Shown: positions 18 to 43,158 of the stretch, in pieces | How positions within the stretch are numbered: the stretch's first letter is position 1 | How the letters are laid out: every line of letters begins with the position of its first letter | Virus record (IMG/VR): IMGVR_UViG_3300042904_000017 | Coordinates: 1-43,158 of that record | Length of the DNA stretch: 43,158 nt | Direction: 5' to 3' (one strand) | Source of the DNA: a virus | Lineage: Duplodnaviria; Caudoviricetes | Position numbers and translations under genes: made by a program | The notes under the pieces: generated by a model | Told to the model about the DNA's origin: nothing | Databases searched by the model: none | Seen by the model: only the letters and a program-made list of their open reading frames with translations

Positions 18-30
18 TAAGTCATTGATT
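18..30 (-). promoter_or_regulatory. IHF consensus site (duplicate copy at 43049-43061)
   Basis: Reverse strand AATCAATGACTTA matches WATCAANNNNTTR. Confidence 0.55.
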
Positions 31-62
31 CCATTAGCAACACACTAGCTGATACAACTAAT

Positions 63-108
63 AAGCCTCACAAGGTGCCCGCATGTGGCCCTCGTGGGGC
101 TTTTTTTT
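63..108 (+). terminator. Rho-independent terminator
   Basis: aagcctcac...gtggggctt stem followed by T8. Confidence 0.65.
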
Positions 109-195
109 ACTGACTCGCTGGTCAGTTATCGGTGCCTGCATCAGGGCATCAGTCCGTTTTCCCTTCAGGTGTACCCTACGTCCCCCATCAGAACA

Positions 196-259
196 CCCAC
201 AGAGTCCCACAGGAGCGCCTACACGCCCACCACAGGCATTGGGTGGCACACACCCACAG
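196..259 (+). repeat. Short CCCACAG repeats near the presumed left end
   Basis: CCCACAG at 196, 206, 253 and CCACAG at 230; reminiscent of T7 terminal short repeats. Confidence 0.4.
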
Positions 260-320
260 GGACAACGCATGGCCTCTCATAGGGCCTCTATAGAGCTACT
301 GAGGGGCTCATAGTGAAACC

Positions 321-387
321 CTATCGATTACTCAACTGTTCATTGAAAGAAACAATTGCACAATCGAGACTGTTCCGATTATGATTC
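321..387 (+). promoter_or_regulatory. Sigma70-like early promoter 1 overlapped by a tandem operator-like array
   Basis: TTGCAC(356)-18 bp-TATGAT(380); GTTSC-N6-GSAAC-like units at 321/338/355/372. Confidence 0.6.
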
Positions 388-430
388 AGTCCATCAACCG
401 CAACTAACCGAACAACAACAGGAGCAGCAA

Positions 431-652
431 ATGAACATCGTCCGAGTAATCGCTACCGTTATGCGTGATGGCGTAGCAGTCCAAGTACCACGCAGTGAAG
501 CGGAGCAATTCACGGTCTACACCGGCCATCTAGACACCTTCCTGTGGGCCGCTGACCTGTCCACCTACGGCGAAGCCATGAGCATTGCCGCCATCCTGGC
601 CTATGAGGACGGCGCAACGGTGAGCGATGAGACCACTGCAGCAGGCCAATAA
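431..652 (+). CDS. Hypothetical early protein
   Basis: AGGAG RBS before ATG 431 (upstream TTG start lies inside the promoter). Confidence 0.75.
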   Translation: MNIVRVIATVMRDGVAVQVPRSEAEQFTVYTGHLDTFLWAADLSTYGEAMSIAAILAYEDGATVSDETTAAGQ

Positions 653-673
653 GACAACCACTAGGAGCTAATC

Positions 674-1129
674 ATGAGTAACGTAATTCACCAAGAAATC
701 ATTGAGCAACACGGGATCAAATTCCTTGTGGAGATTGAGCCCGATAGCGATACAGGTGCACCTTGGGAAAACCAAGACATCCTTGGCGATGTCACCGATT
801 GGGAGATGCGCTCTAAGCACCCTAGTGAGCGTGTGCTGAATCAAGACCGTGGCTCGTATCGCTTCTATGACTTCCAGTCAGCCATGAAGAAGGCACGCAA
901 AGAGTTCGGTAACACCAAGGATGCCGTCCGCGCGGTGGAGCGTGAGTTCTCGTGGCTGCGTGACTGGTGCAGGGACGAGTGGTCCTATGTAGGGGTGATT
1001 GTCACCGTACTAGATGAAGACGGCAGTAAGACAGAACGGGAAGATGCACTCTGGGGCGTTGAGGATAACGACGGATACCCAATGCAGGTGGCACAAGAGC
1101 TGGCTATGGGTCTTGGCATTTTCGAGTGA
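674..1129 (+). CDS. Hypothetical early protein (acidic, Trp-rich)
   Basis: 151-aa ORF, ACTAGGAG RBS. Confidence 0.85.
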   Translation: MSNVIHQEIIEQHGIKFLVEIEPDSDTGAPWENQDILGDVTDWEMRSKHPSERVLNQDRGSYRFYDFQSAMKKARKEFGNTKDAVRAVEREFSWLRDWCRDEWSYVGVIVTVLDEDGSKTEREDALWGVEDNDGYPMQVAQELAMGLGIFE

Positions 1130-1139
1130 TTTTTTTACC

Positions 1140-1178
1140 CACATAGTTCCACATAAGGAACAATTGCAACTAGGAGAT
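1140..1178 (+). promoter_or_regulatory. Operator palindrome GTTCC-N6-GGAAC overlapping a weak phage-promoter-like motif and an RBS
   Basis: gttcc acataa ggaac at 1146; CCACATAAGGA matches the promoter core. Confidence 0.5.
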
Positions 1179-1182
1179 AATA

Positions 1183-1425
1183 ATGTGCAAGAGCAAAGGC
1201 TACAACGGCCACAAGAACTGGAACCACTGGAACGTATCCCTGTGGATCAACAACGATGAAGGTCTGTACAACTTGGCTAAGGCGTGCATCCGCAACAACC
1301 CGAAAGACCGCGCTGAGGCCGCTTGGGAGATGTGCGCGAACCTGCGCGGGAATGGCATCACTAAGACCCCTGATGGTGCGCCTTACTCGGTCTCCAGCAT
1401 CCGTGCTGCTATGGTGGGGATGTAA
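1183..1425 (+). CDS. Conserved phage hypothetical protein (YNGxxNWxxWNVxLWIxNDEGLY motif)
   Basis: Motif familiar from small phage proteins; strong RBS. Confidence 0.85.
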   Translation: MCKSKGYNGHKNWNHWNVSLWINNDEGLYNLAKACIRNNPKDRAEAAWEMCANLRGNGITKTPDGAPYSVSSIRAAMVGM

Positions 1426-1427
1426 TC

Positions 1428-1505
1428 ATGGCCCTCGTCATCATCGCCTGTGTGGTCACCGGCTACATCATCTCGCGGCCTGTAGTGCGCGCCCTGGGGG
1501 TGTGA
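1428..1505 (+). CDS. 25-aa hydrophobic peptide
   Basis: MALVIIACVVTGYIISRPVVRALGV fills the gap between two genes. Confidence 0.5.
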   Translation: MALVIIACVVTGYIISRPVVRALGV

Positions 1506-1506
1506 C

Positions 1507-1752
1507 ATGCGCCTGCATCTCATCTCCCCGAACATCATCGAAGTGGCCTTCAGGGACGGCACGTTGGTGCTGTTCTTCCACGACTGGCCGGTAGCTGCCC
1601 ATACCCCACAAGGGTTGGCATATCGGACCACTAAGCAGCTCCCTGCAGGGGCATCCAGCGCTATCCGCGTGTGGCTTGGTCAGCACCCCGCAAGGGGCAC
1701 CTACTCGATGCCGCAAGAGTGGTTTGAGCACCTCATTGAGGACCGCTGTTAG
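1507..1752 (+). CDS. Hypothetical early protein
   Basis: 81-aa ORF in a tightly packed operon. Confidence 0.7.
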   Translation: MRLHLISPNIIEVAFRDGTLVLFFHDWPVAAHTPQGLAYRTTKQLPAGASSAIRVWLGQHPARGTYSMPQEWFEHLIEDRC

Positions 1753-1783
1753 AATCTCCTAAGGGAATCACTGGGAGAACACC

Positions 1784-1885
1784 ATGCGCAAGCCTAACGG
1801 TGTGCCAATGCCTCACCCTGTGGTGTGTTTGGTAGTGGCTGGTCTGATCGGAATGGGGCTGTGGGTCTTCCCATTCCACCTCTAA
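1784..1885 (+). CDS. 33-aa membrane peptide
   Basis: GGGAG RBS; MRKPNGVPMPHPVVCLVVAGLIGMGLWVFPFHL with one hydrophobic segment. Confidence 0.55.
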   Translation: MRKPNGVPMPHPVVCLVVAGLIGMGLWVFPFHL

Positions 1886-1904
1886 CACAAAGCCCTGGCC
1901 GCGA

Positions 1905-3221
1905 TCAGATGGTCAGGGCCACTTTCCCGAGCCATTCAGCTTTCACCCTGAGCCCATAGCCGGTGCCGTACTGGTTCCCGATACCCTCGCTGGCCCATCC
2001 TCCGATAGCCAGGCGGACATCCTCAGGGCACTGCACGTCCCTCAAGCGGTCCGCCATGGTGTGCCTCAGCTCGTGGACGATGTGCTTGATGCCCTGGGCC
2101 TTGAACCACTTGATGAGCGTTGCTGAGGCGCTATCGGCCTTGGTCTCCGCCTCCTTGTTGTACTGCGGGAAGGCGAACTTCTGGCCCTTCTTGGCCCTCT
2201 CACAGATACGCCTGGCTGCCCACAGAGCCATGCCGGTGAGGGGCACCTGGCGTTGGCTCTCGGCGGTCTTCACGGACCTCCACGGATGCGGCTGGATGAC
2301 GATGTAGGGCACCTCAGCGTTCACGTGGATGTCCTCCAGGGGCAACCCTGCGATCTCCGCCAGCCTGGCTCCGGTGTCCATGAGCATGGCAGCAAGCCAC
2401 CTTGGCCCATCATCCTTGGCCTTGCAGAGCTGGGCCAGGTTGAGCAGCTCGTCACGCTTGAATGGGTTGCGCTTCCTCCTGTCCTTGCCCTCATCAGGGA
2501 TCGGCAGGGACGCGAAGGGGTTCCTGCGGTCTATCTCCTTCTCCTTGAAGTAGGACGACAGGATAGCCGCATAGGCGTTGACCAGGCGGCGAATGGTGCC
2601 CGTGGAGGCCCCTTCGGCTTGGAGCCGGGAGACCACGCTGTGTGCATCCTCTCGCGTGATGGCATCGACTACCTTGTCCCCGATCATGGCCGTGATCTTC
2701 CCGAAGGCCATCGTGGCGTACCCTACGAACTTCTGGTCGTTCTTCTTCTTGTGCCGCTCCAGGTACAGCTTCAGGGCATCGCTGAGGGTGTCCTTCAGTG
2801 TCCCGGCGATCATCTGCGCTGCAGCGATCTCGTGGGGCGCCAGGTAGTCCCCTGCGGATGCCATGCGGTACACCCGTTCGTCTCCAGCCGCGTGCAGCTC
2901 CCGCTTCCGGTCCAGGTGGTCATAGAGCAGGGATAGGGCCTGTGGGTCCCGCTCGCCCAGGTCAATGCCCCACTGCGTGAGCAGCTCTGCGGCCTTGGCC
3001 TTGGTGGTCTTAGGGGGTGCCGTGAGGTTGCCCCGCATGGATGCCCATTCGGCCTCCAGTGTGGCATTGAGGCGCTCCACCTGGGCCGCAGCCAGCCTGG
3101 GGTCCGTGGTGGTGAGCTTGATCTTGACCCGCTTGGATTCGTAGCGGGCCTGAAGATCATCGGGGATCGCGCGCTGGAAGTAGATGGTGTTCCCTCGCTG
3201 GTAGGCGTAACGAATTGACAT
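1905..3221 (-). CDS. int: Tyrosine integrase 2 with DUF6538-type N-terminal arm-binding domain
   Basis: DTGARLAEI (R), VKT (K), HELRH, IGGW, NQYG (Y); N-terminal YFQRAIPDDL...LTTTD motif; likely start MSIRY at 3221. Confidence 0.9.
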   Translation of the reverse strand: MSIRYAYQRGNTIYFQRAIPDDLQARYESKRVKIKLTTTDPRLAAAQVERLNATLEAEWASMRGNLTAPPKTTKAKAAELLTQWGIDLGERDPQALSLLYDHLDRKRELHAAGDERVYRMASAGDYLAPHEIAAAQMIAGTLKDTLSDALKLYLERHKKKNDQKFVGYATMAFGKITAMIGDKVVDAITREDAHSVVSRLQAEGASTGTIRRLVNAYAAILSSYFKEKEIDRRNPFASLPIPDEGKDRRKRNPFKRDELLNLAQLCKAKDDGPRWLAAMLMDTGARLAEIAGLPLEDIHVNAEVPYIVIQPHPWRSVKTAESQRQVPLTGMALWAARRICERAKKGQKFAFPQYNKEAETKADSASATLIKWFKAQGIKHIVHELRHTMADRLRDVQCPEDVRLAIGGWASEGIGNQYGTGYGLRVKAEWLGKVALTI

Positions 3222-3255
3222 CGAAAGTAGTCCAGAAGTAATTTTCATCTCAAAG

Positions 3256-3448
3256 ATTACCACACTTTCTACCACACTCCCGTGGTGAAAAGAGGGGGGT
3301 TATCCTTTGTAATCAGGGGTTTATGGGAAAAGTCTCGCCCCCTTCTCCGGCACCAATTACCACATCTCTTAAAGCCCTCCCCCTGTAGAGGGGGAAGCCC
3401 AAGCGGCGGATCAGGGCGATTACCACATAGATTACCACGTTTTACCAC
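3256..3448 (+). other. Candidate attP2: tRNA-3'-like core CCCTTCTCCGGCACCA (3340-3355) with TACCAC arm repeats and an IHF-like site
   Basis: (A/T)TTACCAC at 3256, 3356, 3419, 3431, 3441 and TCTACCAC at 3268; AATCAGGGGTTTA at 3311; adjacent to the int2 5' end. Confidence 0.7.
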
Positions 3449-3451
3449 GCG

Positions 3452-3480
3452 AAAGCCTCAGGTCACCCCTGGGGCTTTTT
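3452..3480 (+). terminator. Rho-independent terminator downstream of the attP2 core
   Basis: aagcctcagg/cctggggctt stem plus T tract. Confidence 0.7.
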
Positions 3481-3539
3481 GCCTTCTTCTTGTCATTCTT
3501 TCATCAATATAGTTTTTGACTATCAATTTTCGATAATCG

Positions 3540-3590
3540 ATTGAAACAATAAATTTCCACAATCGGAACTGTTCCGTTACAGTGACTACA
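3540..3590 (+). promoter_or_regulatory. Sigma70-like early promoter 2 with operator units; paralogous to promoter 1
   Basis: TTCCAC(3555)-17 bp-TACAGT(3578); shares attgaaa...cacaatcg..actgttccg with 342-377. Confidence 0.6.
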
Positions 3591-3708
3591 TCGCATCTGC
3601 AAATGTTCCTGATGCGGGGCTGACCGGAGCCTAGTTCAAACGCCGGGGCATCGTGCGGACGCCCAATCGGGACAAGCGATGCACCTAGAACCCTCGCTGC
3701 GGTGAGGG

Positions 3709-3751
3709 CCTAGGAGTGAGGGTCCCACGGTGGGGCCTTCATCACTAGGAG
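3709..3751 (+). promoter_or_regulatory. 43-bp hairpin element (RNase III-site-like), copy 1
   Basis: CCTAGGAGT-stem-loop-ATCACTAGGAG. Confidence 0.55.
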
Positions 3752-3761
3752 GCAATACAGA

Positions 3762-4508
3762 ATGGCAAATGCACGTAAGCACATCGAGACCGAACGCAAA
3801 GAGGTGGTGAAGGTCAAGGAAATCTCCCAGGAGATGGTTACGCTGGTCATGACCAAGGCCGAAGCGGAGACCCTGCGGGTAATCCTGGGGCGTGTGGGCG
3901 GCAATCCAGAAAAGTCCCCACGCCGCTACGCAGCTCGCATCTTCGCTGCTTTGGGCGATGCCGGAGTGGCTTGGGAGACGGATCACTACAAGACTGACCC
4001 AAGCTCCAGCATCCACTTCCTCAATTACCCCCAGAAGGCCAAGAAGGCCCCTGAGGTGGTCCTGCAGGCTGCTGCCCCTCGCGGTCCTCGGGTGGGAGAC
4101 ACCATCGAATTCCGGACTAACTACGCTGGAGTGGCGAAGAAGGGAGAGCACATGGTCATCACGAAGTGCCCTGCGGACGGTTACACGGTGGAATCCGGCG
4201 TGGTCTTCGGCATCACGAACGGTGGTAACAATTGCTGGATCGGCCCGGTGAACTACCGCCTGATTCCTGCTGAGGAGCTTCTGAAGTTGGAAGTAGGCGC
4301 CCGGATCGAGATGCTTGAGGACCATGGCAGTGCACGGAAAGGTCTTCAGGGAACGATTATGAGGATCACGGATAGCCACCCTAACCCTTCCCCAGGCGAG
4401 ACCAAGTTGGTGACCATCCATTTTGACAAGGGCATCACGGTAGTGATGTACGAGAAGCGCTTCAAGGTGATCTCGCCTACCCAGGACACCTTCGCCCTGG
4501 CCGCGTAA
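3762..4508 (+). CDS. Hypothetical protein (248 aa)
   Basis: AGGAGG RBS; phage-like codon usage. Confidence 0.85.
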   Translation: MANARKHIETERKEVVKVKEISQEMVTLVMTKAEAETLRVILGRVGGNPEKSPRRYAARIFAALGDAGVAWETDHYKTDPSSSIHFLNYPQKAKKAPEVVLQAAAPRGPRVGDTIEFRTNYAGVAKKGEHMVITKCPADGYTVESGVVFGITNGGNNCWIGPVNYRLIPAEELLKLEVGARIEMLEDHGSARKGLQGTIMRITDSHPNPSPGETKLVTIHFDKGITVVMYEKRFKVISPTQDTFALAA

Positions 4509-4556
4509 CACCTCAGGGCTCCCTTCGGGGAGTCCCCTTAGCCTCCCCACGGAGGC

Positions 4557-4599
4557 CCTAGGAGTAAGCCTCGGATGGTCCGGGGTTTATCACTAGGAG
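4557..4599 (+). promoter_or_regulatory. 43-bp hairpin element (RNase III-site-like), copy 2
   Basis: Same ends and length as 3709-3751 with a different but still paired stem. Confidence 0.55.
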
Positions 4600-4824
4600 C
4601 GTTAGTGGTTCGCTAACCATATCCCCCACCTACCACCTAAAACGCGTGGGGAGTCTGTTGAAATTAGAACACGTCTTTGTCATAGATTTCTCACGGAATG
4701 TAACACAGCAACTAACGATGAAGCACGGAAATGTAGTCTTACTCCTACAACTGCATGGCAATACTTGCAGAATAAAATAAACCATCGCCTCGTGGAGGCG
4801 AACTTCTTCTAAGGACAAACGAGT

Positions 4825-5031
4825 ATGTTCATTAAACTGTGGGGCCTGGAGATTTTTGCCGAGATCGTTCCTATTGCGGAAAAATTCATTGACCGGTACA
4901 ATTCCTCAGACGAAAATCATTTCTGGTTCGGACCGCTCCATGTGGTCTGGAACCACACAGGAGAGAAAAATGAATGGGGAAAAGAAGATGGAATCACTGA
5001 TGGCAGCCCTGGAAACGTTCCGGGGCCTTGA
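4825..5031 (+). CDS. Hypothetical protein
   Basis: AAGGA RBS; overlaps the start of the next gene. Confidence 0.45.
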   Translation: MFIKLWGLEIFAEIVPIAEKFIDRYNSSDENHFWFGPLHVVWNHTGEKNEWGKEDGITDGSPGNVPGP

Positions 5032-5296
5032 TCCCGACATGCCGATGGCAATGGCCCTCAGCCTCTTGGTCATTTCCAAGAACGAGGGTCTAAGCCTGAA
5101 GGAGCTTGCCGAGAAGGTAGGCATCGGGATGGCTTCGGTGTCCCGCTACGTTGCCTTCTTCGGCAAGCCCAACGCCTCCGGCAAGAAGGGGTTGGGCCTG
5201 GTGGTCGCCGTTGAGGACCCTCTGGAGCGCCGTAAGAAGACCATCACGCTCACCGCCAAGGGCCGGGCAGTGATCGCCAAACTGGAGGCCGCCTGA
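4970..5296 (+). CDS. MarR-like winged-helix DNA-binding protein (candidate repressor or directionality factor)
   Basis: HTH LSLKELAEKVGIGMASVSRYV and wing DPLERRKKTITLTAKG; GGAG RBS; stop overlaps the int1 start. Confidence 0.85.
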   Translation: MNGEKKMESLMAALETFRGLDPDMPMAMALSLLVISKNEGLSLKELAEKVGIGMASVSRYVAFFGKPNASGKKGLGLVVAVEDPLERRKKTITLTAKGRAVIAKLEAA

Positions 5297-6348
5297 TGCC
5301 CATCAAAAAGAGAGGGAACTCCTACCAGGTCACTGTCGGCTCTGGGAAGAACCGCTACCGCCAGATGTTCCCGGACGAGGGGGACGCCAAGCAGGCGGAG
5401 CTGGACGAGATCAAGCGTAGGAAACTTCAGGGGACCTCAGTGGCCCCGAAGCCAGCGAGCGAGACCCCCAAGGGTAAGACCCTACAGGAGGCTTACGATC
5501 TGACCTTGCGCCTGCACTGGAAGGGCACCGCTGCCGAGAAGACCCACAAGATCAACTCGAAGGCCGTTCTGGACTTCCTCGGGAGGGACACCCCGCTGAC
5601 CAGCATCACATCGGAGATGGTCAACGAGATGATCTTCGAGTTCGAGGATCAGGGGAACTCCGGCTCCACGGTGAACAAGAAGGGCTCCTGCCTGCGGATG
5701 ATGTTCAAGACCGCAGTGGAGCAAAAGTGGGTCAAGGAGTTTCCCAACCCGCCATTCCGCAAAGAGGCCAAGCACCGCATCCGGTGGATGGACGAGGCGG
5801 AGGAGGGGAGGGTCCTGGCCCTGTGTGACCACCTCGGACTGAGCGACCTGAAGGACTACATCATCGTCGCCATCGACACAGGCTTCCGCCGTGGTGAGAT
5901 GCTGGGGTTCAAGCCTCAGGACTTCTCGAACGGCCTCCTGCACCTCCACGAGGGGGAGACCAAGACGGAGGAAGCGAGGTCCGTGCCGGCCACCAGGCGG
6001 GTCACCGAGGTCCTCAACCGCAGGTCCAACAGGCCGTACACCTTCTACCCCCTTACGGTGTACACTCTGCGCGCCCAGTGGGAGTACCTGCGGGAGCTGC
6101 TGCAGATGCAGGCGGACCCACAGTTCGTGGTCCACATGCTCCGGCATACCTGCGCGTCCCGCCTGGTGCAACGTGGGGTGCCCCTGGCGATGGTCCAGAA
6201 GTGGATGGGCCACAAGAAGATCGAGACCACGCTGCGGTACGCGCACCTGGCCCCGAACAGCCTGCTGATAGGGAAGGAAGCCCTGGAGCAGGGCGCAACG
6301 ACGATAACCCCGCTGGAGGCCCCTGAGCTGGCCGAAGTGGACTTTTAA
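5296..6348 (+). CDS. int: Tyrosine integrase 1 (typical position for temperate T7-like phages, upstream of RNAP)
   Basis: DTGFRRGE, TKT, HMLRH, WMGH, RYAHL catalytic motifs. Confidence 0.95.
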   Translation: MPIKKRGNSYQVTVGSGKNRYRQMFPDEGDAKQAELDEIKRRKLQGTSVAPKPASETPKGKTLQEAYDLTLRLHWKGTAAEKTHKINSKAVLDFLGRDTPLTSITSEMVNEMIFEFEDQGNSGSTVNKKGSCLRMMFKTAVEQKWVKEFPNPPFRKEAKHRIRWMDEAEEGRVLALCDHLGLSDLKDYIIVAIDTGFRRGEMLGFKPQDFSNGLLHLHEGETKTEEARSVPATRRVTEVLNRRSNRPYTFYPLTVYTLRAQWEYLRELLQMQADPQFVVHMLRHTCASRLVQRGVPLAMVQKWMGHKKIETTLRYAHLAPNSLLIGKEALEQGATTITPLEAPELAEVDF

Positions 6349-6357
6349 GGAGGGCTT

Positions 6358-6513
6358 ATGCAGCCACAGATCAAATGGACCGGATACTGCTGGTGGTGTT
6401 CCACCCCGGACGGCCGCTATCAGGACGGTGCCCCTGGAACTTCACCTGAGGACGCCTTCAAGCGGTGGGAGGCTCTGAGGACTCCACCTAAGCCCTGGTG
6501 GAAGCTTTTCTGA
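6358..6513 (+). CDS. 51-aa hypothetical protein ending KPWWKLF
   Basis: AAGGAGG RBS; not in the supplied track because it is under 60 aa. Confidence 0.7.
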   Translation: MQPQIKWTGYCWWCSTPDGRYQDGAPGTSPEDAFKRWEALRTPPKPWWKLF

Positions 6514-6522
6514 GGAGGGCAC

Positions 6523-6723
6523 ATGCACCCGCAGACAAGAGATGAGCTGAACCAGCTCCACGGGAAGGTGCAGGACCTGGAAGCGGAGATCACCAACGCC
6601 GCAGCCCAAGCCCTGGACAACGAGAAGGACCTGACCACCTTCAAGCTGGAGGTCATGGCGAAGCTCGAAGAAATGAGCAAGAAGATCGACCAGATACACA
6701 AAATCGTCCACTACGGGCGCTGA
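6523..6723 (+). CDS. Small coiled-coil protein
   Basis: GAGGAGG RBS; heptad pattern. Confidence 0.75.
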   Translation: MHPQTRDELNQLHGKVQDLEAEITNAAAQALDNEKDLTTFKLEVMAKLEEMSKKIDQIHKIVHYGR

Positions 6724-6724
6724 C

Positions 6725-7017
6725 GTGTGCCCATTATGTGCCCGCGATGTGCCCGATAAGAGTCCGATTCGCCCCCTCCCAGGACAAATTCCTCAATCTT
6801 TTCAACGCTGAACCAGATTGAGGTGCTAGTCCCCGAAAGGGGGTGGAAGTTCGAGTCTTCTTGACCGCACCAGACTTTTCCACGAAGGGGAACCTAAGAA
6901 TCCACACGGATTTCAATAGGTTCCCCTTCTTTTTCGCCAGATAGTTGCAAATGTGGAAGTGTTCCTGACATGCATAACTTGCATGGCAGGTGTGCCCGCT
7001 GACACGCGATGTGTCCG
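6725..7017 (+). other. attP1: 55-bp core equal to the 3' half of tRNA-Leu(GAG) (6818-6872), with RTGTGCCC arm repeats
   Basis: Anticodon loop TTGAGGT, variable arm cccc-gaaa-gggg, T-arm ggaag-ttcgagt-cttct, TGACCGC-A-CCA; no 5' half; arm repeats at 6725, 6736, 6747, 6990, 7009. Confidence 0.9.
6884..6934 (+). terminator. Strong terminator downstream of the attP1 core
   Basis: 13-bp perfect stem gaaggggaaccta/taggttccccttc plus T5. Confidence 0.8.
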
Positions 7018-7069
7018 CCCGGCTTAGACTCAATTGATTCCTATATTGCAACTGTTCCTCCATTGCAGC
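6944..7069. promoter_or_regulatory. Operator-like arrays upstream of the RNAP gene
   Basis: GTTSC-N6-GSAAC-like units at 6944/6961/6978 and 7037/7054. Confidence 0.55.
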
Positions 7070-7082
7070 CACATAAGGATAG
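7060..7082 (+). promoter_or_regulatory. Phage RNAP promoter candidate upstream of the RNAP gene
   Basis: CCATTGCAGCCACATAA|GGATAG matches the repeated motif. Confidence 0.6.
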
Positions 7083-7173
7083 ACCGAGGGTGAACCTGAA
7101 GGGTACATCCTAAGTATTCATCTTCAATAGATTAAACCTATTGGAGAGACATCTATAGATAATCTACAAGCGG

Positions 7174-9726
7174 ATGACTATGACCACCGAACACAACAAC
7201 GAACCAGAAGACCTGATCGAGACACAACTCCGTCTGGAAGAGGAAATGACTCAGCGAGGCGCTGACCGTTTCATCCGCAATACGGCCAAGGCCCTGGAGG
7301 GTGGGCGGGAAGAACAGACAGCTTACGGTCGCACGATCTTGGCCGGTCGCGTTGAGAAGCTGGCCCAGGCCATCGGAGCCTGGCAGACGGCCACGGCTGA
7401 AGGTGCACCTGGTCTCCGCAACTCCGCAGCGTTCCGCCTGATCGGCACCCACGATGCCCGTGTGTTGTCCTTCCTGACCCTCAAGAACGTCCTGAGCGGT
7501 CTCTCATCCCCGCGTACGGTTCAGTACGTAGCTGTTGCCATCGGCACGGCCATTGAGGACGAGGCCCGGTTCGCTGCCATCCGCGAAGGCGAGCGGCACA
7601 TCTACGACCGAATCGTGAAGGGCTCGAAGAAGCGCACCTCCGCCCGCTACAAGCACATCTACGCAACCCGCGTGGCCGACAACCACGACGAGTGGCAAGG
7701 CTGGACCCGCACTGACCGCCTACACGTAGGGGTCAAGCTGCTGGACATCATGATGCAGTCCATCGGCCTGATCGAGGTGGGCACGAACGGGGAGGGCACC
7801 GAAAAGGCCCTGAAGTACGTGAAGCCGCTCCCGAGCACCCTGGAATGGATCGAGAGGAAGAACGCGGCCACGGCCCTGCTGCGGCCTGTCTATGAGCCGA
7901 TGGTAGTGCAGCCCCGCGACTGGACCACCCCGTATGACGGTGGCTACCTGTCCTCCGACATCAAGCCGCTGGTGATGGTCAAGACCAAGAACCGAGCGTA
8001 CCTGGAGGAGCTGACCTCCGTGGACATGCCGATTGTCTACGATGCCCTGAACGCCATCCAGCGCACGGCCTGGCAGATCAACAGCCAGGTGCTGGAGGTC
8101 ATGCGGACCTTCTGGGACCACGGCACGGTGATCGCAGGGATGCCCCCGCGTGAGGGCCTGGCGCTGCCACCGAAGCCCCACGACATCGACACGAACGCCG
8201 AGGCCCAGGCGGAGTACCGCAAGGCTGCCTTCAAGGTCCACTCGGAGAACCTGTCACTGCTGGGCAGCCGGATCGGCTTCAACATGACCCTGGACATCGC
8301 CGGTCGCTACGAGAAGTACCGCAAGATTTTCTTCCCGTACCAGCTCGATTTCCGTGGGCGCATCTACGCGGTCCCGCACATCAACCCGCAGGGGCCTGAC
8401 TACCAGAAGGGGCTCCTCAGGTTCGCCAACGGGAAACCGCTGGGGGAGGATGGATGGAAGTGGCTGGCCGTGCATGGGGCCAACGTGGCGGGCTACGACA
8501 AGGCCAGCCTGGAAGACCGTGTTCACTGGGTATTGGAGAACGAAGATGAAATCCTACGAATTGCTGCTGACCCATACGGAAACCGTGGGTGGGCAGACAC
8601 TGTTGGCGGGGTGGGGATCGACAAGCCGTGGCAATTCCTTGCTTTTTGCTTCGAGTGGGCCGGATATGCTCAGCACGGAGAGTCTTTCGTCTCCAAGATA
8701 CCCGTGGCTATGGACGGTAGCTGCTCTGGCATTCAACACTTTTCCGCTATGCTCCGAGACGAAAAGGGTGGAGCTGCCGTCAATCTGGTCCCGCAAGACC
8801 TCCCGGCCGATGTCTACCGCCAAGTCTCCGACCTGGTGACCAAGTGGGCTCAGTCGGATGCCACCAACGGGACCGAGGACACGCTGAAGCACGGCCAGGA
8901 CGGCACCCCATACGTGGTGGCCGGGAGCAAAACCCTGGCCCAGCAGTGGCTGGCCTTCGGGATCAACCGCAAGGTCACCAAGCGCTCCGTGATGACCCTG
9001 GCCTACGGCTCCAAGCAGTACGGCTTCAAGGAGCAGCTCATGGAGGACATCCTCTGGCCTGCCAAGCGGGCAGCCACGCGACCTGACGGCACCGTGGACC
9101 ACGAGAAGTTCCCGTTCGCCAACGATGGCTTCGCTGCTGCGGTCTACATGGCGGAGATGATCTGGGGTGCGGTGAACCAGGTGTTGGTCAAAGCCGGTGA
9201 GGCAATGGCCTGGCTCCAGGAGGCAGCCAGCCTGGCCGCGAAGGAGGGACTGCCGGTCCGCTGGACGACCCCGGTGGGCTTCCCGGTGATGCAGGCTTAC
9301 CCGGCCCTGGCCGAGCGCAGGATACAGACCGCTATCAACGGCACCGTCCTGCGGCTCGTGATGAACCAGGAGAAGGAAGGCTTGGACAGCCGGAAGCAGA
9401 GCCAGGGGATCAGCCCGAACTTCGTGCACTCCTGTGATGCGTCCCACCTCATGCTGACCGTGAGCCGCGCCAAGCAGGCCGGGATCAACTCCTTTGCGAT
9501 GATCCACGACTCGTTCGGGACCACCGCAGGGGACACCGAGAAGCTGTACCACGTTGTCCGCGAGGCGTTCATCGAGATGTACACCGAGGTGGATGTCCTC
9601 GGGAACTTCCGGGATGAGCTGAAGGGGCAGCTCAGCGAGAAACTGCAGAAGAAACTGAAGCCGCTCCCAGAGAGTGGCACCCTGGACCTTTCCGCCGTAG
9701 CGGATAGCCGGTTTTGTTTCGCCTAA
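7174..9726 (+). CDS. gp1: Single-subunit DNA-directed RNA polymerase
   Basis: DFRGRIY, DGSCSGIQH, RKVTKRSVMTLAYGS, PNFVHSCD, IHDSFGT, C-terminal FCFA. Confidence 0.99.
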   Translation: MTMTTEHNNEPEDLIETQLRLEEEMTQRGADRFIRNTAKALEGGREEQTAYGRTILAGRVEKLAQAIGAWQTATAEGAPGLRNSAAFRLIGTHDARVLSFLTLKNVLSGLSSPRTVQYVAVAIGTAIEDEARFAAIREGERHIYDRIVKGSKKRTSARYKHIYATRVADNHDEWQGWTRTDRLHVGVKLLDIMMQSIGLIEVGTNGEGTEKALKYVKPLPSTLEWIERKNAATALLRPVYEPMVVQPRDWTTPYDGGYLSSDIKPLVMVKTKNRAYLEELTSVDMPIVYDALNAIQRTAWQINSQVLEVMRTFWDHGTVIAGMPPREGLALPPKPHDIDTNAEAQAEYRKAAFKVHSENLSLLGSRIGFNMTLDIAGRYEKYRKIFFPYQLDFRGRIYAVPHINPQGPDYQKGLLRFANGKPLGEDGWKWLAVHGANVAGYDKASLEDRVHWVLENEDEILRIAADPYGNRGWADTVGGVGIDKPWQFLAFCFEWAGYAQHGESFVSKIPVAMDGSCSGIQHFSAMLRDEKGGAAVNLVPQDLPADVYRQVSDLVTKWAQSDATNGTEDTLKHGQDGTPYVVAGSKTLAQQWLAFGINRKVTKRSVMTLAYGSKQYGFKEQLMEDILWPAKRAATRPDGTVDHEKFPFANDGFAAAVYMAEMIWGAVNQVLVKAGEAMAWLQEAASLAAKEGLPVRWTTPVGFPVMQAYPALAERRIQTAINGTVLRLVMNQEKEGLDSRKQSQGISPNFVHSCDASHLMLTVSRAKQAGINSFAMIHDSFGTTAGDTEKLYHVVREAFIEMYTEVDVLGNFRDELKGQLSEKLQKKLKPLPESGTLDLSAVADSRFCFA

Positions 9727-9729
9727 TCA

Positions 9730-9784
9730 CTTCCTAATTTGCAACTATCACAGCCGGGGAAGCATTCCTGCCACATACGGATAA
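9730..9784 (+). promoter_or_regulatory. Operator units plus phage RNAP promoter
   Basis: Units at 9730/9747/9764; GCATTCCTGCCACATAC|GGATAA at 9762. Confidence 0.7.
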
Positions 9785-9826
9785 ACGAGCCGAGCCCCGG
9801 CTGACCACCTGTCACTGAGACTACCT

Positions 9827-9991
9827 ATGACCGAGATCGAAATCGAACGCGAGTACCACGACCGTACTCCTGAGCTGAAGCGCGCAATCAACCAATGGAA
9901 ACACGGGAACACCATCCCGCTGGACCTGGCGGTTGCTTTGATGGAGCAGGGCCACGACGTTGAGTCCCTCGCTGCCAAGTACCGAAACTAA
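9827..9991 (+). CDS. 54-aa hypothetical protein
   Basis: Read manually: [54 protein letters not shown]; typical codon usage. Confidence 0.7.
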
Positions 9992-10007
9992 CCCCAACAC
10001 ACACGAT

Positions 10008-10685
10008 ATGGCAGAAAAGAAACAGAAGAACTTCCAGGCTACCACCCCTCGCGGCATCTTCCGCTACCCGGCCCTGGACAAACCCGACTTCGGTAACGAG
10101 GAGTTTCCGAAGCCCCAGGGCGTCTACAAGGTCCAGCTCATCCTGACTGAGCAGGAGGCTGAACCACTGATCGCCAAGCTGGCCCCCCTGTACGACCAGG
10201 CCGTGGCCGAAGGCAATGAGAAGTTCAAGGGCCTGAAGGTTGAGCAGCGCAAGAAGCTGAAGGAACTGAAGGTCAACGACCTGTACGCCCAGGAGTACGA
10301 CCGCGAGACCGAGGAGCCTACCGGCAACCTGATCTTCAAGTTCGAGATGAACGCCTCCGGCGAGAACAAGAAGGGCGAGAAGTACACCCGCAAGCCAGCC
10401 ATCTTCGATGCCAAGGGCAAGCCGATGGTGAAGGTCCCGTCCATCTGGGGTGGCACCGAGGGCAAGGTGTCGTTCGAGGCCGTCCCGTACTTCATCGCAG
10501 GCACTGGTGCCGCTGGCCTGAAGCTACGCCTGAACGCTGCCCAGATCATCGAGCTGGTCTCTGGTGGTCAGCGAGCTGCGAGCGACTACGGCTTCGGTGA
10601 GGAAGACGGCTTCGAGGCCGGTGACCAGACCGAGGAAGATACCCCGTTCAAGGACGAAAGTGGTAGCGGCGAAGAAGAGTTCTAA
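10008..10685 (+). CDS. gp2.5: Single-stranded DNA-binding protein
   Basis: PDF...[26 protein letters not shown]; acidic tail ending in F. Confidence 0.95.
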
Positions 10686-11094
10686 GGCTTCGCTGACTGC
10701 CCGCCAGGTGGCCCTGAAGTACGGCTTCAGGTCCGGCCTGGAGGAGAAGATCGCAGGAACGCTCACCTCGAAAGGGGTGGGCTTCACGTATGAGGAACTA
10801 ACGATCCCTTACGTGGCTCCCGCAAAGCCTCATAAGTACACCCCAGACTTCGTGCTGGACAACGGCATCATCATCGAGAGTAAGGGCCGCTTCGAGACCG
10901 CAGATCGGCAGAAGCACCTGCTGGTAAAAGCCCAGCACCCCCACCTCGACATCCGTTTCGTCTTCAGCTCATCGAAGGCCAAGATCAACAAACGGAGCAC
11001 CACGACTTACGCGAACTGGTGCGAGAAGAATGGCTTCCTCTACGCAGACAAGGAAATTCCTGAGGCGTGGCTGAAGGAGCCTAAGAAAACATGA
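10660..11094 (+). CDS. gp3: Endonuclease I (Holliday junction resolvase)
   Basis: [29 protein letters not shown]; likely GTG start at 10660. Confidence 0.95.
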
Positions 11095-11543
11095 GTTACG
11101 ACGCAAAGACTAAGAACCGTGTACGCACGGAGTACCTGGCGATTCATTGCAGTGCCACCCGCCCGTCCCAGGATGTTGGCGCTTCGGACATCGACCGATG
11201 GCACCGCCAGCGTGGATTCGCTTGCATCGGATACAACTACGTGATCCGCCGTGATGGCACCGTGGAGAATGGACGCCCGCGTGATCAGATCGGCGCGCAT
11301 GTGGAAGGCTGGAACTCCGTGTCCCTGGGCATCTGCATGGTAGGAGGGGTCTCCGAGAAGGAAGCGAATGCCCCGGAGAACAACTTCACCAAGGAGCAGT
11401 TCGAGTCCCTGAAGAAGCTCCTGCTGGAGCTGCGCAAGGTGTACCCGAAGGCGCACATCCAGGGCCACCGAGATTTCCCGAAAGTGAATAAGGCGTGTCC
11501 GAGTTTCCAGGTATCGACCTGGCTGAAAGAAGTTGGAATCTAA
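11091..11543 (+). CDS. gp3.5: N-acetylmuramoyl-L-alanine amidase (T7 lysozyme-like)
   Basis: IHCSAT, IGYNYVIRRDG, GAHV, GHRD, KACPSF. Confidence 0.97.
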   Translation: MSYDAKTKNRVRTEYLAIHCSATRPSQDVGASDIDRWHRQRGFACIGYNYVIRRDGTVENGRPRDQIGAHVEGWNSVSLGICMVGGVSEKEANAPENNFTKEQFESLKKLLLELRKVYPKAHIQGHRDFPKVNKACPSFQVSTWLKEVGI

Positions 11544-11931
11544 GCAGTGTCCTAGGTGCCTCCAGGAGAGGCCCGCGAGTGAGTTCTACAAAGCCGCAAG
11601 TGGAAACCCTGGAGGCCAGTGCAAACAGTGCCGGTCTAAAGTGTCCCGAGAGAAGTACGGCACGGACCCCGCCAGCATCCTGGCACCGAGATACGGAATC
11701 ACGGTAGCGACCTTAAACGGAATTCTGGATGAGCAATCGTTTCTCTGTGCGATTTGTGAGGAACCTCTCCGGGGAGGCCGCTACCAGGCCATCGACCATG
11801 ACCACACTTCAGGGAAGGTTCGAGGGGTTCTCTGCGCCTCTTGCAATACCGCCATCGGCAAATTGAAAGATGATCCAGAAATAATTCGCCGCGCCGCAGA
11901 CTATGTGGAGCGGCATAAATTCCCCAACTGA
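11533..11931 (+). CDS. Endonuclease VII-like (HNH-fold) free-standing endonuclease
   Basis: CAIC...IDHDH...VRGVLCASCN plus N-terminal CxxC pairs; more AT-rich codons. Confidence 0.85.
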   Translation: MESKQCPRCLQERPASEFYKAASGNPGGQCKQCRSKVSREKYGTDPASILAPRYGITVATLNGILDEQSFLCAICEEPLRGGRYQAIDHDHTSGKVRGVLCASCNTAIGKLKDDPEIIRRAADYVERHKFPN

Positions 11932-11941
11932 AAAGGACCGT

Positions 11942-12070
11942 ATGAAAGACCTGAACAAGTACCAGCGCCCGACCTTCGAGCAATACGAAGCACTGAAGCA
12001 GAACAAACGGAGCATCCGCCAAGCTGGCTTGTTCCGTCTGGATGCACGTGCCCGGCTGGTGACCAAGTAA
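11942..12070 (+). CDS. 42-aa basic protein
   Basis: AAGGA RBS; MKDLNKYQRPTFEQYEALKQNKRSIRQAGLFRLDARARLVTK. Confidence 0.65.
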   Translation: MKDLNKYQRPTFEQYEALKQNKRSIRQAGLFRLDARARLVTK

Positions 12071-12090
12071 TCCCTGCCACATACGGATAA
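12068..12090 (+). promoter_or_regulatory. Phage RNAP promoter
   Basis: TAATCCCTGCCACATAC|GGATAA; 18 bp identical to the 9767 copy; aligns with the T7 promoter format. Confidence 0.75.
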
Positions 12091-12170
12091 GGGAGCCGAT
12101 CCCTCATCCGGTGTTTCCTTTCATCTCCTAGTAGTACTTCGGGCTGGCCTTCGGGCTGGCCCTCTTTTTT
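12085..12170 (+). ncRNA. Predicted ~86-nt small RNA
   Basis: Promoter +1, 5' hairpin, unpaired C/U-rich tract, UUCG terminator hairpin plus T6; no ORF. Confidence 0.45.
12141..12170 (+). terminator. Terminator hairpin with cUUCGg loop
   Basis: gggctggcc-ttcg-ggctggccc then tctttttt. Confidence 0.65.
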
Positions 12171-42514: not shown

Positions 42515-42999
42515 CGGGGGATCACGAGCCTTAGGGCTGTGCCGCATCACTGCGGACTGGGGAACCTCAGTGTGTGCGGTCAGACCTGTGCTTGTTACTG
42601 ACCACCGCTGGGGACACTCTAGGTTTCACTCCTGCACTCTCATAGACACTTATGGGGGGTAGGGGGGAAACATAGGTGTTCCTAGTGGTGGATCAGCCCT
42701 ATGCTTAGGATGAACCCTAAGTTTCCCTTCAGTTTCCCTTATGGGCTCCTGAAGGGAATACACCATCAACATCAACCCTATAGTCACCATCCAGCATGGT
42801 TCCTTTAGGCAGCCCCTTAGCTACCCTCAACACTCCCTGGTGACGACCTCAAGGGACACGAGGGGGGGAACCTGAGGGAGCTGCCTAAGGGACGAGTGGT
42901 CTCCCCCCGAAATGTTTTACCGCAAAAATCTGAAAGCCCACCTCGAACGCAAACGGTGGGCGATTCCCCCCGTGCCCCCGGCCCTCGCTGGCCGTCCCT

Positions 43000-43043
43000 C
43001 GGCACATCCGCACGCCCATTCGGGCACATCTTGCGGGCACATC
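43000..43043 (-). repeat. GGCACATC repeats, reverse complement of the attP1 arm repeats
   Basis: cggcacatc 43000, cgggcacatc 43021 and 43034 versus gatgtgcccg 6746. Confidence 0.75.
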
Positions 43044-43158
43044 CCACGTAAGTCATTGATTCCATTAGCAACACACTAGCTGATACAACTAATAAGCCTC
43101 ACAAGGTGCCCGCATGTGGCCCTCGTGGGGCTTTTTTTTACTGACTCGCTGGTCAGTT
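43032..43158 (+). repeat. Exact 127-bp repeat of positions 1-127 (circular-contig overlap)
   Basis: Direct comparison of the two ends; 127 is a common assembler k-mer size. Confidence 0.9.

Follow-up and report, generated by a model that had tools for sequence, protein, structure and literature searches.

The window analysed here, 43,158 nucleotides long, is the whole of the IMG/VR virus record IMGVR_UViG_3300042904_000017, with a 127-nt assembly overlap. Pfam and PHROG matches of its proteins return a T7-like gene set, including a single-subunit RNA polymerase (RNAP), in T7 gene order. Two unrelated tyrosine integrases, Int1 and Int2, are encoded upstream of the RNAP gene, each beside a phage attachment site (attP1 and attP2, with core1 and core2). 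A third site, of the Int1 type, lies at 43000-43093 (equivalent through the overlap to 1-62) and is absent from a preliminary description of the sequence. Coordinates are collected in Table 1.

Two integrases and three sites in one genome

The window holds the genome of an unusual T7-like phage of the temperate type, with both integrase genes intact. Among cultured phages, it is closest to members of Gyeongsanvirus that infect Ralstonia and Bordetella (RNAP 67-73%, Int1 54-57% identity). Two soil sequencing runs, X1 and X2, contain it, and either may be the record's source; a single X1 contig spans positions 19-12000, and a single X2 contig of 43,061 nt covers the whole window. ARAGORN and Rfam scans of the window returned nothing useful. 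Passages available from 10.1101/410191 and PMC10134795 give one integrase before the RNAP gene as the rule in temperate T7-like phages. Such phages (LUZ100, HTVC019P-type pelagiphages, Pasto, ProddE, RHEph01 and Lo5R7ANS) share with the window a MarR-like gene, a tyrosine integrase and a tRNA-Leu-type attP upstream of the RNAP gene, on a linear genome with a direct terminal repeat. Unlike them, the window adds a second, unrelated integrase with a complete attP in the early region.

Family alignments show that the catalytic residues of Int1 (R198, K223, H280, R283, H306 and Y315) are invariant, as are R286, K318, H383, R386 and Y418 of Int2 (numbered from 3221), with W409 nearly so; the preliminary statement that both enzymes keep their catalytic residues is thereby confirmed. 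The placing of int1 (5296-6348) beside a tRNA-Leu(GAG) 3'-half core flanked on both sides by RTGTGCCC repeats was equally sound. Core1 (6818-6872) is the 3' half of tRNA-Leu(GAG), and the four exact repeats (6725, 6736, 6747 and 6990) compare with 0.02 expected by shuffling. Of 78 related phage loci, 11 have an attP1-type site after the integrase gene. Exact matches to the 55-nt core1 are absent from GTDB representatives, and its last 30 nt recur in about 280 GTDB stretches. The 120 matches listed are alphaproteobacterial-type tRNA-Leu genes, and among those listed only the 5' halves of alphaproteobacterial-type tRNA-Leu(GAG) give full pairing with core1. The integration host factor (IHF)-like box found 31 bp before the loop in relatives was not recognisable by eye in the window, a weak hint of attP1 decay. 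Two related phages carry tandem attP1-type sites about 1.2-1.3 kb apart (L324, 11136 and 12315; L327, 4458 and 5745), each copy with arms and a tRNA-Leu half, an arrangement that suggests cassettes captured between att copies.

The second integrase was first described as a DUF6538-type gene at 3221-1905 on the minus strand. It is indeed intact, of this type and unrelated to int1, but its start is probably 3248 (MKITSG) rather than 3221, since an N-terminal extension is present in most aligned homologues. The neighbouring tRNA-3'-like core, with six TACCAC repeats on both sides and an IHF-like site, was recovered as described: the repeats lie at 3258, 3270, 3358, 3421, 3433 and 3443, against 0.07 expected, and none of 20,000 shuffles reached six. 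Bacterial tRNA genes with exactly the 3340-3355 end exist, as core2 is the tRNA-Thr(CGT) end in 2 of 151 genomes sampled from one betaproteobacterial order; two viral att remnants carry it too. The GC and GC3 of the int2 module (0.62/0.82) equal those of the phage core genes. Both arm sets flank a single core, which is not the attL/attR form of a small island; by this layout attP2 is an uncut attP and the element is the whole phage. A terminator had been described after each core. A hairpin with a T-run can be seen by eye in both places (3452-3480 and ~6884-6930), but a terminator scan listed neither stem.

The third site appears to lie within the terminal repeat of the linear virion DNA. We place the left virion end at 42941, because in X1 adapter sequence is joined there and contig depth is about threefold higher from there to 43079 (2777-3603 over 42941-43079, against ~960 elsewhere). 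By analogy with the mapped repeats of other phages, the right end would fall near position 147. The terminal core lies 135-153 bp inside the mapped left end, with arms on one side only. Its inverted repeat, ACTAGC / 7 bp / ACTAAT, is a copy of the anticodon-stem half-site of core1, and its spacer is identical to that of attP1 at one of seven positions. A reading of the early region as an invertible segment bounded by attP1 and the terminal site was dismissed as unlikely, as the spacers share 1-2 of 7 positions.

Table 1. Features of the window relevant to the two integrases and their sites.
Feature	Position	Strand	Basis or remark
int2, tyrosine integrase of DUF6538 type, 447 aa counted from the probable start at 3248	1905..3248	-	PF20172 + PF00589, alignment
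Pair of Int2 arm-type TACCAC repeats immediately upstream of the start of int2	3258..3275	+	GTGGTA pair likewise before int2 homologues
IHF-like site of attP2	3311..3323	+	one mismatch to the consensus; similar site in the same place at homologous loci
attP2 core, equal to the final 16 nt of tRNA-Thr(CGT) and antisense to int2	3340..3355	+	exact tRNA matches
Four further Int2 arm-type repeats, 1 + 3	3358..3448	+	arms likewise 1 + 3 at the opposite end of the G1123 prophage
Hairpin and T-run downstream of core2	3452..3480	+	sequence, by eye
MarR-like regulator	4970..5296	+	phrog_9665; 70% to a protein named MarR family
int1, usual integrase of temperate T7-like phages, 350 aa	5296..6348	+	PF00589 + PF13102
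Three Int1 arm-type repeats left of core1	6725..6754	+	motif search, shuffles
attP1 core: ACCAGA / anticodon loop 6818-6824 / GCTAGT, and tRNA-Leu(GAG) 3' half	6812..6872	+	tRNA gene comparison
Long hairpin and T-run after the tRNA half	6884..6930	+	sequence, by eye
Int1 arm-type repeats to the right of core1: one exact and one variant copy	6990..7016	+	motif search
T7-type RNA polymerase	7174..9726	+	Pfam, PHROG
Terminal repeat of linear virion DNA	42941..43158	+	left end 42941 mapped; right end predicted near circular position 147 (~238 bp)
Int1 arm-type repeats in the terminal repeat, two exact, one variant	43000..43042	-	motif search, shuffles
IHF consensus match, the genome's only exact one	43049..43061	-	motif search
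Core-type inverted repeat ACTAGC / 7-bp spacer / ACTAAT (= 44-62)	43075..43093	.	26 bp from the IHF site

The terminal site in other T7-like phages

Terminal-repeat sites of this kind are common to the window and the temperate T7-like phages, and are undescribed in the available passages of PMC10134795 and 10.1101/410191. The terminal core falls inside the annotated repeats of vRsoP-WF2 (167 of 281), Pasto (157 of 271) and ProddE (153 of 271), and passages of PMC8703784 report the repeat ends of vRsoP-WF2 as Sanger-confirmed. In these three annotated repeats a predicted recombinase site is thus present twice, in direct repeat, on linear DNA; for the window the same would follow from the left end.

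In 35 phages we scored the site at a fixed offset from an IHF-like anchor, which retained 21 and dropped 14 that lack an IHF match, several of which show a terminal site by eye. Among the 21, the inverted-repeat match peaks at offset +26 (3.76 of 5, against 0.57-1.81 at 15 other offsets), an offset picked after the data had been seen. Half-sites fit the attP of their own phage better than those of other phages (p = 5e-5 over 15 phages, seven of which share one core type; p = 0.017 over 8 representatives), as do the arms (p = 0.0013, 21 phages), and the terminal spacers in this set are mostly unlike the attP loop. A blind search, whose arm motifs were chosen automatically and wrongly in several phages, gave a mean of 1.41 matches, compared with 0.49 for background and 0.68 with the motifs of other phages. 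RHEph21, examined afterwards, has a terminal site at +27 with its own half-site. The control phages T7, gh-1, phiKMV, ICP3 and 3MF5, with no annotated integrase in the part examined, lack the site. In 3MF5 an IHF-like box stands at the terminal-site position (L415, 116-128) with no arms or core; no integrase precedes the RNAP gene there, and the box is possibly a relic of a temperate ancestor. Separately, the spacer TTAAATA recurs in the terminal cores of L333, L338, L346 and BB8 despite their different half-sites.

The site also persists where the usual attP does not. The Gyeongsanvirus phages DU_RP_I, vRsoP-WF2, BOESR1 and BB8 have the same terminal site as the window, which differs from them in possessing both a second integrase and a tRNA-type core after int; neither was matched in these four. 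BB8, DU_RP_I, BOESR1 and the provirus G005, introduced below, keep integrase and terminal site with no tRNA-type core between int and the RNAP gene. Available passages of PMC8703784 report Gyeongsanvirus phages as lytic, with an unexplained integrase.

The Int2 module and an integrated relative

Int2 has its homologues (44-63% identity) mostly in betaproteobacteria, where they are named. At 47 of 86 Int2-homologous loci a tRNA gene or end lies just upstream (35 whole tRNAs and 12 tRNA ends); 17 had too little flank to judge and 22 were scored as none, several of the latter showing antisense or remnant tRNA ends by eye. Among homologues of at least 43% identity, tRNA-Thr(CGT) accounts for seven of the nine whole tRNAs. 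One locus, L147, is a complete 7-kb island whose 18-bp duplication starts after the T-loop, as core2 does. These DUF6538 (PF20172) island integrases resemble Int2 in domain layout and in carrying GTGGTA arms and an IHF-like site ahead of the start codon, and have tRNA-Thr(CGT) as the commonest target among close homologues, with a 16-18-bp duplication after the T-loop (L147). In the window, by contrast, Int2 sits in a complete T7-like phage with an uncut attP and an antisense tRNA end, a minority layout in the family that is also seen in L148. Taken together, sequence comparison indicates that the Int2 module is taken from a family of small, tRNA-targeted islands. Upstream of four Int2 homologues, antisense and sense tRNA ends stand back to back (L143, 105-146; L144, 9846-9887; L181, 1285-1324; L207, 64-104), as though the previous end had been retained when the element changed its orientation or target.

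Such modules are rare among related phages. A second recombinase was found in the early region of none of the 34 related phage loci that cover terL to int1, and no Int2-like gene at high identity was found in GenBank phages. In IMG/VR, a single query returned no Int2 and an alignment returned two, neither with a T7-like gene in its flank. Searches of two genome samples gave matches in 1 of 401 and 3 of 251, all distant. The literature searched does not name DUF6538 in any paper. Passages of PMC10142737 describe Pseudomonas phage vB_PaeM-G11, a T7-like prophage whose 486-aa early-region integrase is distantly Int2-like (E 1e-20 to our profile A1); unlike the window, it has one integrase in the 5 kb examined and no MarR-int1 module annotated before the RNAP gene.

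The closest relative was found in the integrated state, as provirus G005 and in the genome G1123. Its Int1 and RNAP are 80% and 83% identical to those of the window, and the G005 proteins and an Int2 homologue (58%) have neighbouring accession numbers under the name Pseudoduganella lutea. In G1123 each end of the prophage, at C1:7335418 and at 7379106, bears a copy of an 11-bp core. One end also has a pair of GTGGTA arms and int2, which is directed inward; the opposite end has arms in a 3 + 1 layout. The 18 bp between this core and the adjacent arm match the spacing at core2. The prophage has one copy of the terminal site and no attP1-type core. Integration of G005 at the terminal site was considered and ruled out, as the ends fall at the Int2 site. 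The insertion lies between two host genes, which from their translations we take to be fdhD-like and fdnG-like, and the target is not a tRNA. As a further observation, the target of this DUF6538 integrase is the leader of a gene that, by its translation, is presumably a formate dehydrogenase gene, and the prophage parts this gene from its upstream region.

Because the G1123 prophage is bounded by an Int2-type site and lacks attP1, we conclude that an Int2 module has integrated a T7-like phage. By sequence, the Int2-type module occupies the same genome position in two related phages, its target has changed, and one of the two was integrated by it. The prophage state is seen for this relative in G1123. 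Neither G1123 nor four relatives have a match to core2 with fewer than three mismatches, which makes that genus an improbable host of the window phage. The preliminary description had foreseen two prophage permutations; an Int2-type permutation, unlike the usual one between int and the RNAP gene, is seen in the G1123 relative, but the choice between two tRNAs from which the claim was derived is unsupported.

A proposed division between circularisation and integration

Insertion of a whole genome by a site-specific integrase needs a circular substrate, and lambda-type integrases need spacer homology. We favour, with moderate confidence, a division of work in which Int1 circularises the genome at its terminal repeats and Int2, with attP2, inserts the circle into the 3' end of tRNA-Thr(CGT). 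Int1 would recombine the terminal-site copies in the two repeats and so close the linear genome into a circle. As the terminal spacer differs (1/7), a terminal site would be expected to have its twin as sole partner, to the exclusion of attP1 and the host tRNA. Int2, as an added or substitute route into the chromosome, would then insert the circle at attP2, leaving the order tRNA - MarR - int1 - RNAP ... terL - early genes - int2, as in G1123; alternatively, Int1 could insert it at attP1, provided that the tRNA-Leu(GAG) of the host fits. Binding and cleavage of the terminal site by Int1, with a circle as product, are predictions from sequence, and we likewise expect the window's Int2 to be active on tRNA-Thr, and attP1 still to work in a host with a fitting tRNA-Leu(GAG). 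Under this proposal Int1 is kept after the loss of attP1 because it would circularise the genome.

A broader version, to which we would give an even chance, is that temperate T7-like phages circularise by means of their own integrase at a dedicated, spacer-coded site in both repeats. That job would keep the integrase in 'lytic' relatives. Integration could then pass to exchangeable integrases from islands, which bring new targets, such as tRNA-Thr in the window and the formate dehydrogenase leader in G1123, and the present genome would be a snapshot of the hand-over with both routes intact.

Several points weigh against these proposals. Circularisation at identical repeats would leave no trace in the sequence. 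The window's terminal core lies at or just past the end of the measured high-depth stretch (43079), and the right end is placed by analogy. In the comparison across phages, the offset was post hoc, 14 of 35 phages were left out and three sites fall at +27; the seven phages of 15 with one core type are not independent; and the blind arm-motif test was weaker, with at least two near-matches in 12 of 29 phages. The G1123 target, which is not a tRNA, supports the module and not a tRNA-Thr target, and the G1123 record is frameshifted in terL and tail tube B. Finally, the contig loose ends listed include no host junction of the window phage.

Among the alternatives, the most serious, though in our view unlikely, is that the terminal Int1 site is real and has another role. 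It could resolve or join concatemers, or Int1 bound there could regulate early transcription or packaging, with circles forming by homologous recombination or by exonuclease and annealing at the repeats. Concatemer resolution is the same chemistry as circularisation, the arms lie on one side only, and phages called lytic keep integrase and site (PMC8703784, in the passages available), suggesting use in lytic growth. The conserved inverted repeat, the 7-bp spacer and the fixed IHF-like distance, on the other hand, form the layout of a cutting site, which speaks against pure regulation. T7 and gh-1 form concatemers without a terminal site.

It is improbable that the two attP sites are alternatives within one host, as the preliminary description had it, with double use inverting or deleting host DNA or stranding the MarR-int1 segment (3356-6817) as a cassette. 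Both modules do look complete, and one host could in principle offer both spacers: of ten alphaproteobacterial tRNA-Thr genes that differ from core2 by at most one mismatch, nine have its first 7 nt unchanged, and the tRNA-Leu(GAG) has the TTGAGGT loop in eight of the ten genomes checked from that match list. In those genomes, however, the phage 3' half would fail to pair in the anticodon stem, and core2 is exact in none of 251 alphaproteobacterial genomes (12 one-mismatch matches). The TTGAGGT loop occurs in 5 of 151 genomes of the betaproteobacterial order. Separate searches recovered core2 in pattern form in none of 151 genomes of one family, and Int1 in none of 301 genomes of a betaproteobacterial order. 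Both genomes with exact core2 are Neisseria-like, and their tRNA-Leu(GAG) differs in loop and acceptor, so that core1 does not fit. No genome was found that fits both cores, which may serve different hosts, or one of which may be on its way out. Junctions had been predicted at both cores, and among the contig loose ends listed for X1 and X2 we saw neither a host junction nor the rearrangements or stranded cassette; contig ends at 6818-6876, tried as junctions, proved to be tRNAs of other bacteria, with mismatches. The closest relative, moreover, has dropped attP1, and the alternatives account leaves the retention of Int1 unexplained, because relatives without attP1 keep Int1 and the terminal site.

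Quite improbable is an Int2-attP2 that is an inactive passenger from a neighbouring island, with Int1 and attP1 alone integrating the phage. The rarity of Int2-like early genes (none in the 34 related loci, none at high identity in GenBank phages) would fit a passenger. Arguing against one are the undamaged catalytic residues, a core with arms to its left and right, GC and GC3 like those of the phage core genes, and a relative which the module, in the same place in the genome, has integrated. Chimeric assembly of 1886-3540 can practically be dismissed, as unbroken single contigs cross both borders in X1 and X2 and G1123 has the same module in the same position.

Recombination between directly repeated sites has precedents in P1 Cre-loxP and XerCD-cer/psi, which circularise terminally redundant DNA or resolve multimers and have one-sided accessory sequences. 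The division of work proposed here differs in that a lambda-type, arm-binding integrase with IHF would serve attP and terminal repeat alike. Phages with at least two apparently intact integrases of unclear role appear in passages on the Gordonia phages Utz, Howe and Bowser (PMC5559632) and the Psychrobacillus phage Perkons (PMC13245101). These are not T7-like, and for one of the enzymes an attP often could not be located; in the window, by contrast, sites can be assigned to both enzymes, and which of the two integrates is shown by a relative. A T7-like phage with two integrases, or with an integrase site in its terminal repeat, is undescribed in the literature searched, which lies largely outside subscription papers. 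Circle formation before integration of T7-like phages is unaddressed in the available passages on pelagiphages, cyanophages and LUZ100, and the words 'circular', 'terminal' and 'linear' are absent from PMC8776855. The terminal site makes this unaddressed step of T7-like lysogeny directly testable. If the proposal is true, it explains the intact integrase of biocontrol and therapy candidates described as lytic, and loss of the usual attP does not exclude lysogeny, should an island integrase be acquired. For tool builders, the phages offer natural orthogonal spacer pairs for use with a single integrase, as well as two DUF6538 integrases that differ in target.

Other sequence elements accompany these modules. 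A family of 21-nt imperfect palindromes (356-376, 1147-1167, 3555-3575, 6945-6965 and 7038-7058) has members at the early promoter, ahead of the MarR-int1 operon and in front of the RNAP gene, with similar motifs in G005 and BB8; these are likely operators of the MarR-like repressor. A 34-nt repeat before genes (9764-9797 and 12070-12103) is possibly a phage promoter. A further pair of repeats before genes (3704-3751 and 4552-4599) has the form of hairpin-like leaders (CCTAGGAGT...ATCACTAGGAG), possibly RNase III sites. Between them, 3762-4508 encodes a 248-aa open reading frame with no Pfam family and weak PHROG matches; it would come first after the tRNA in an Int2-type prophage, and in G1123 a different reading frame lies behind the same leader.

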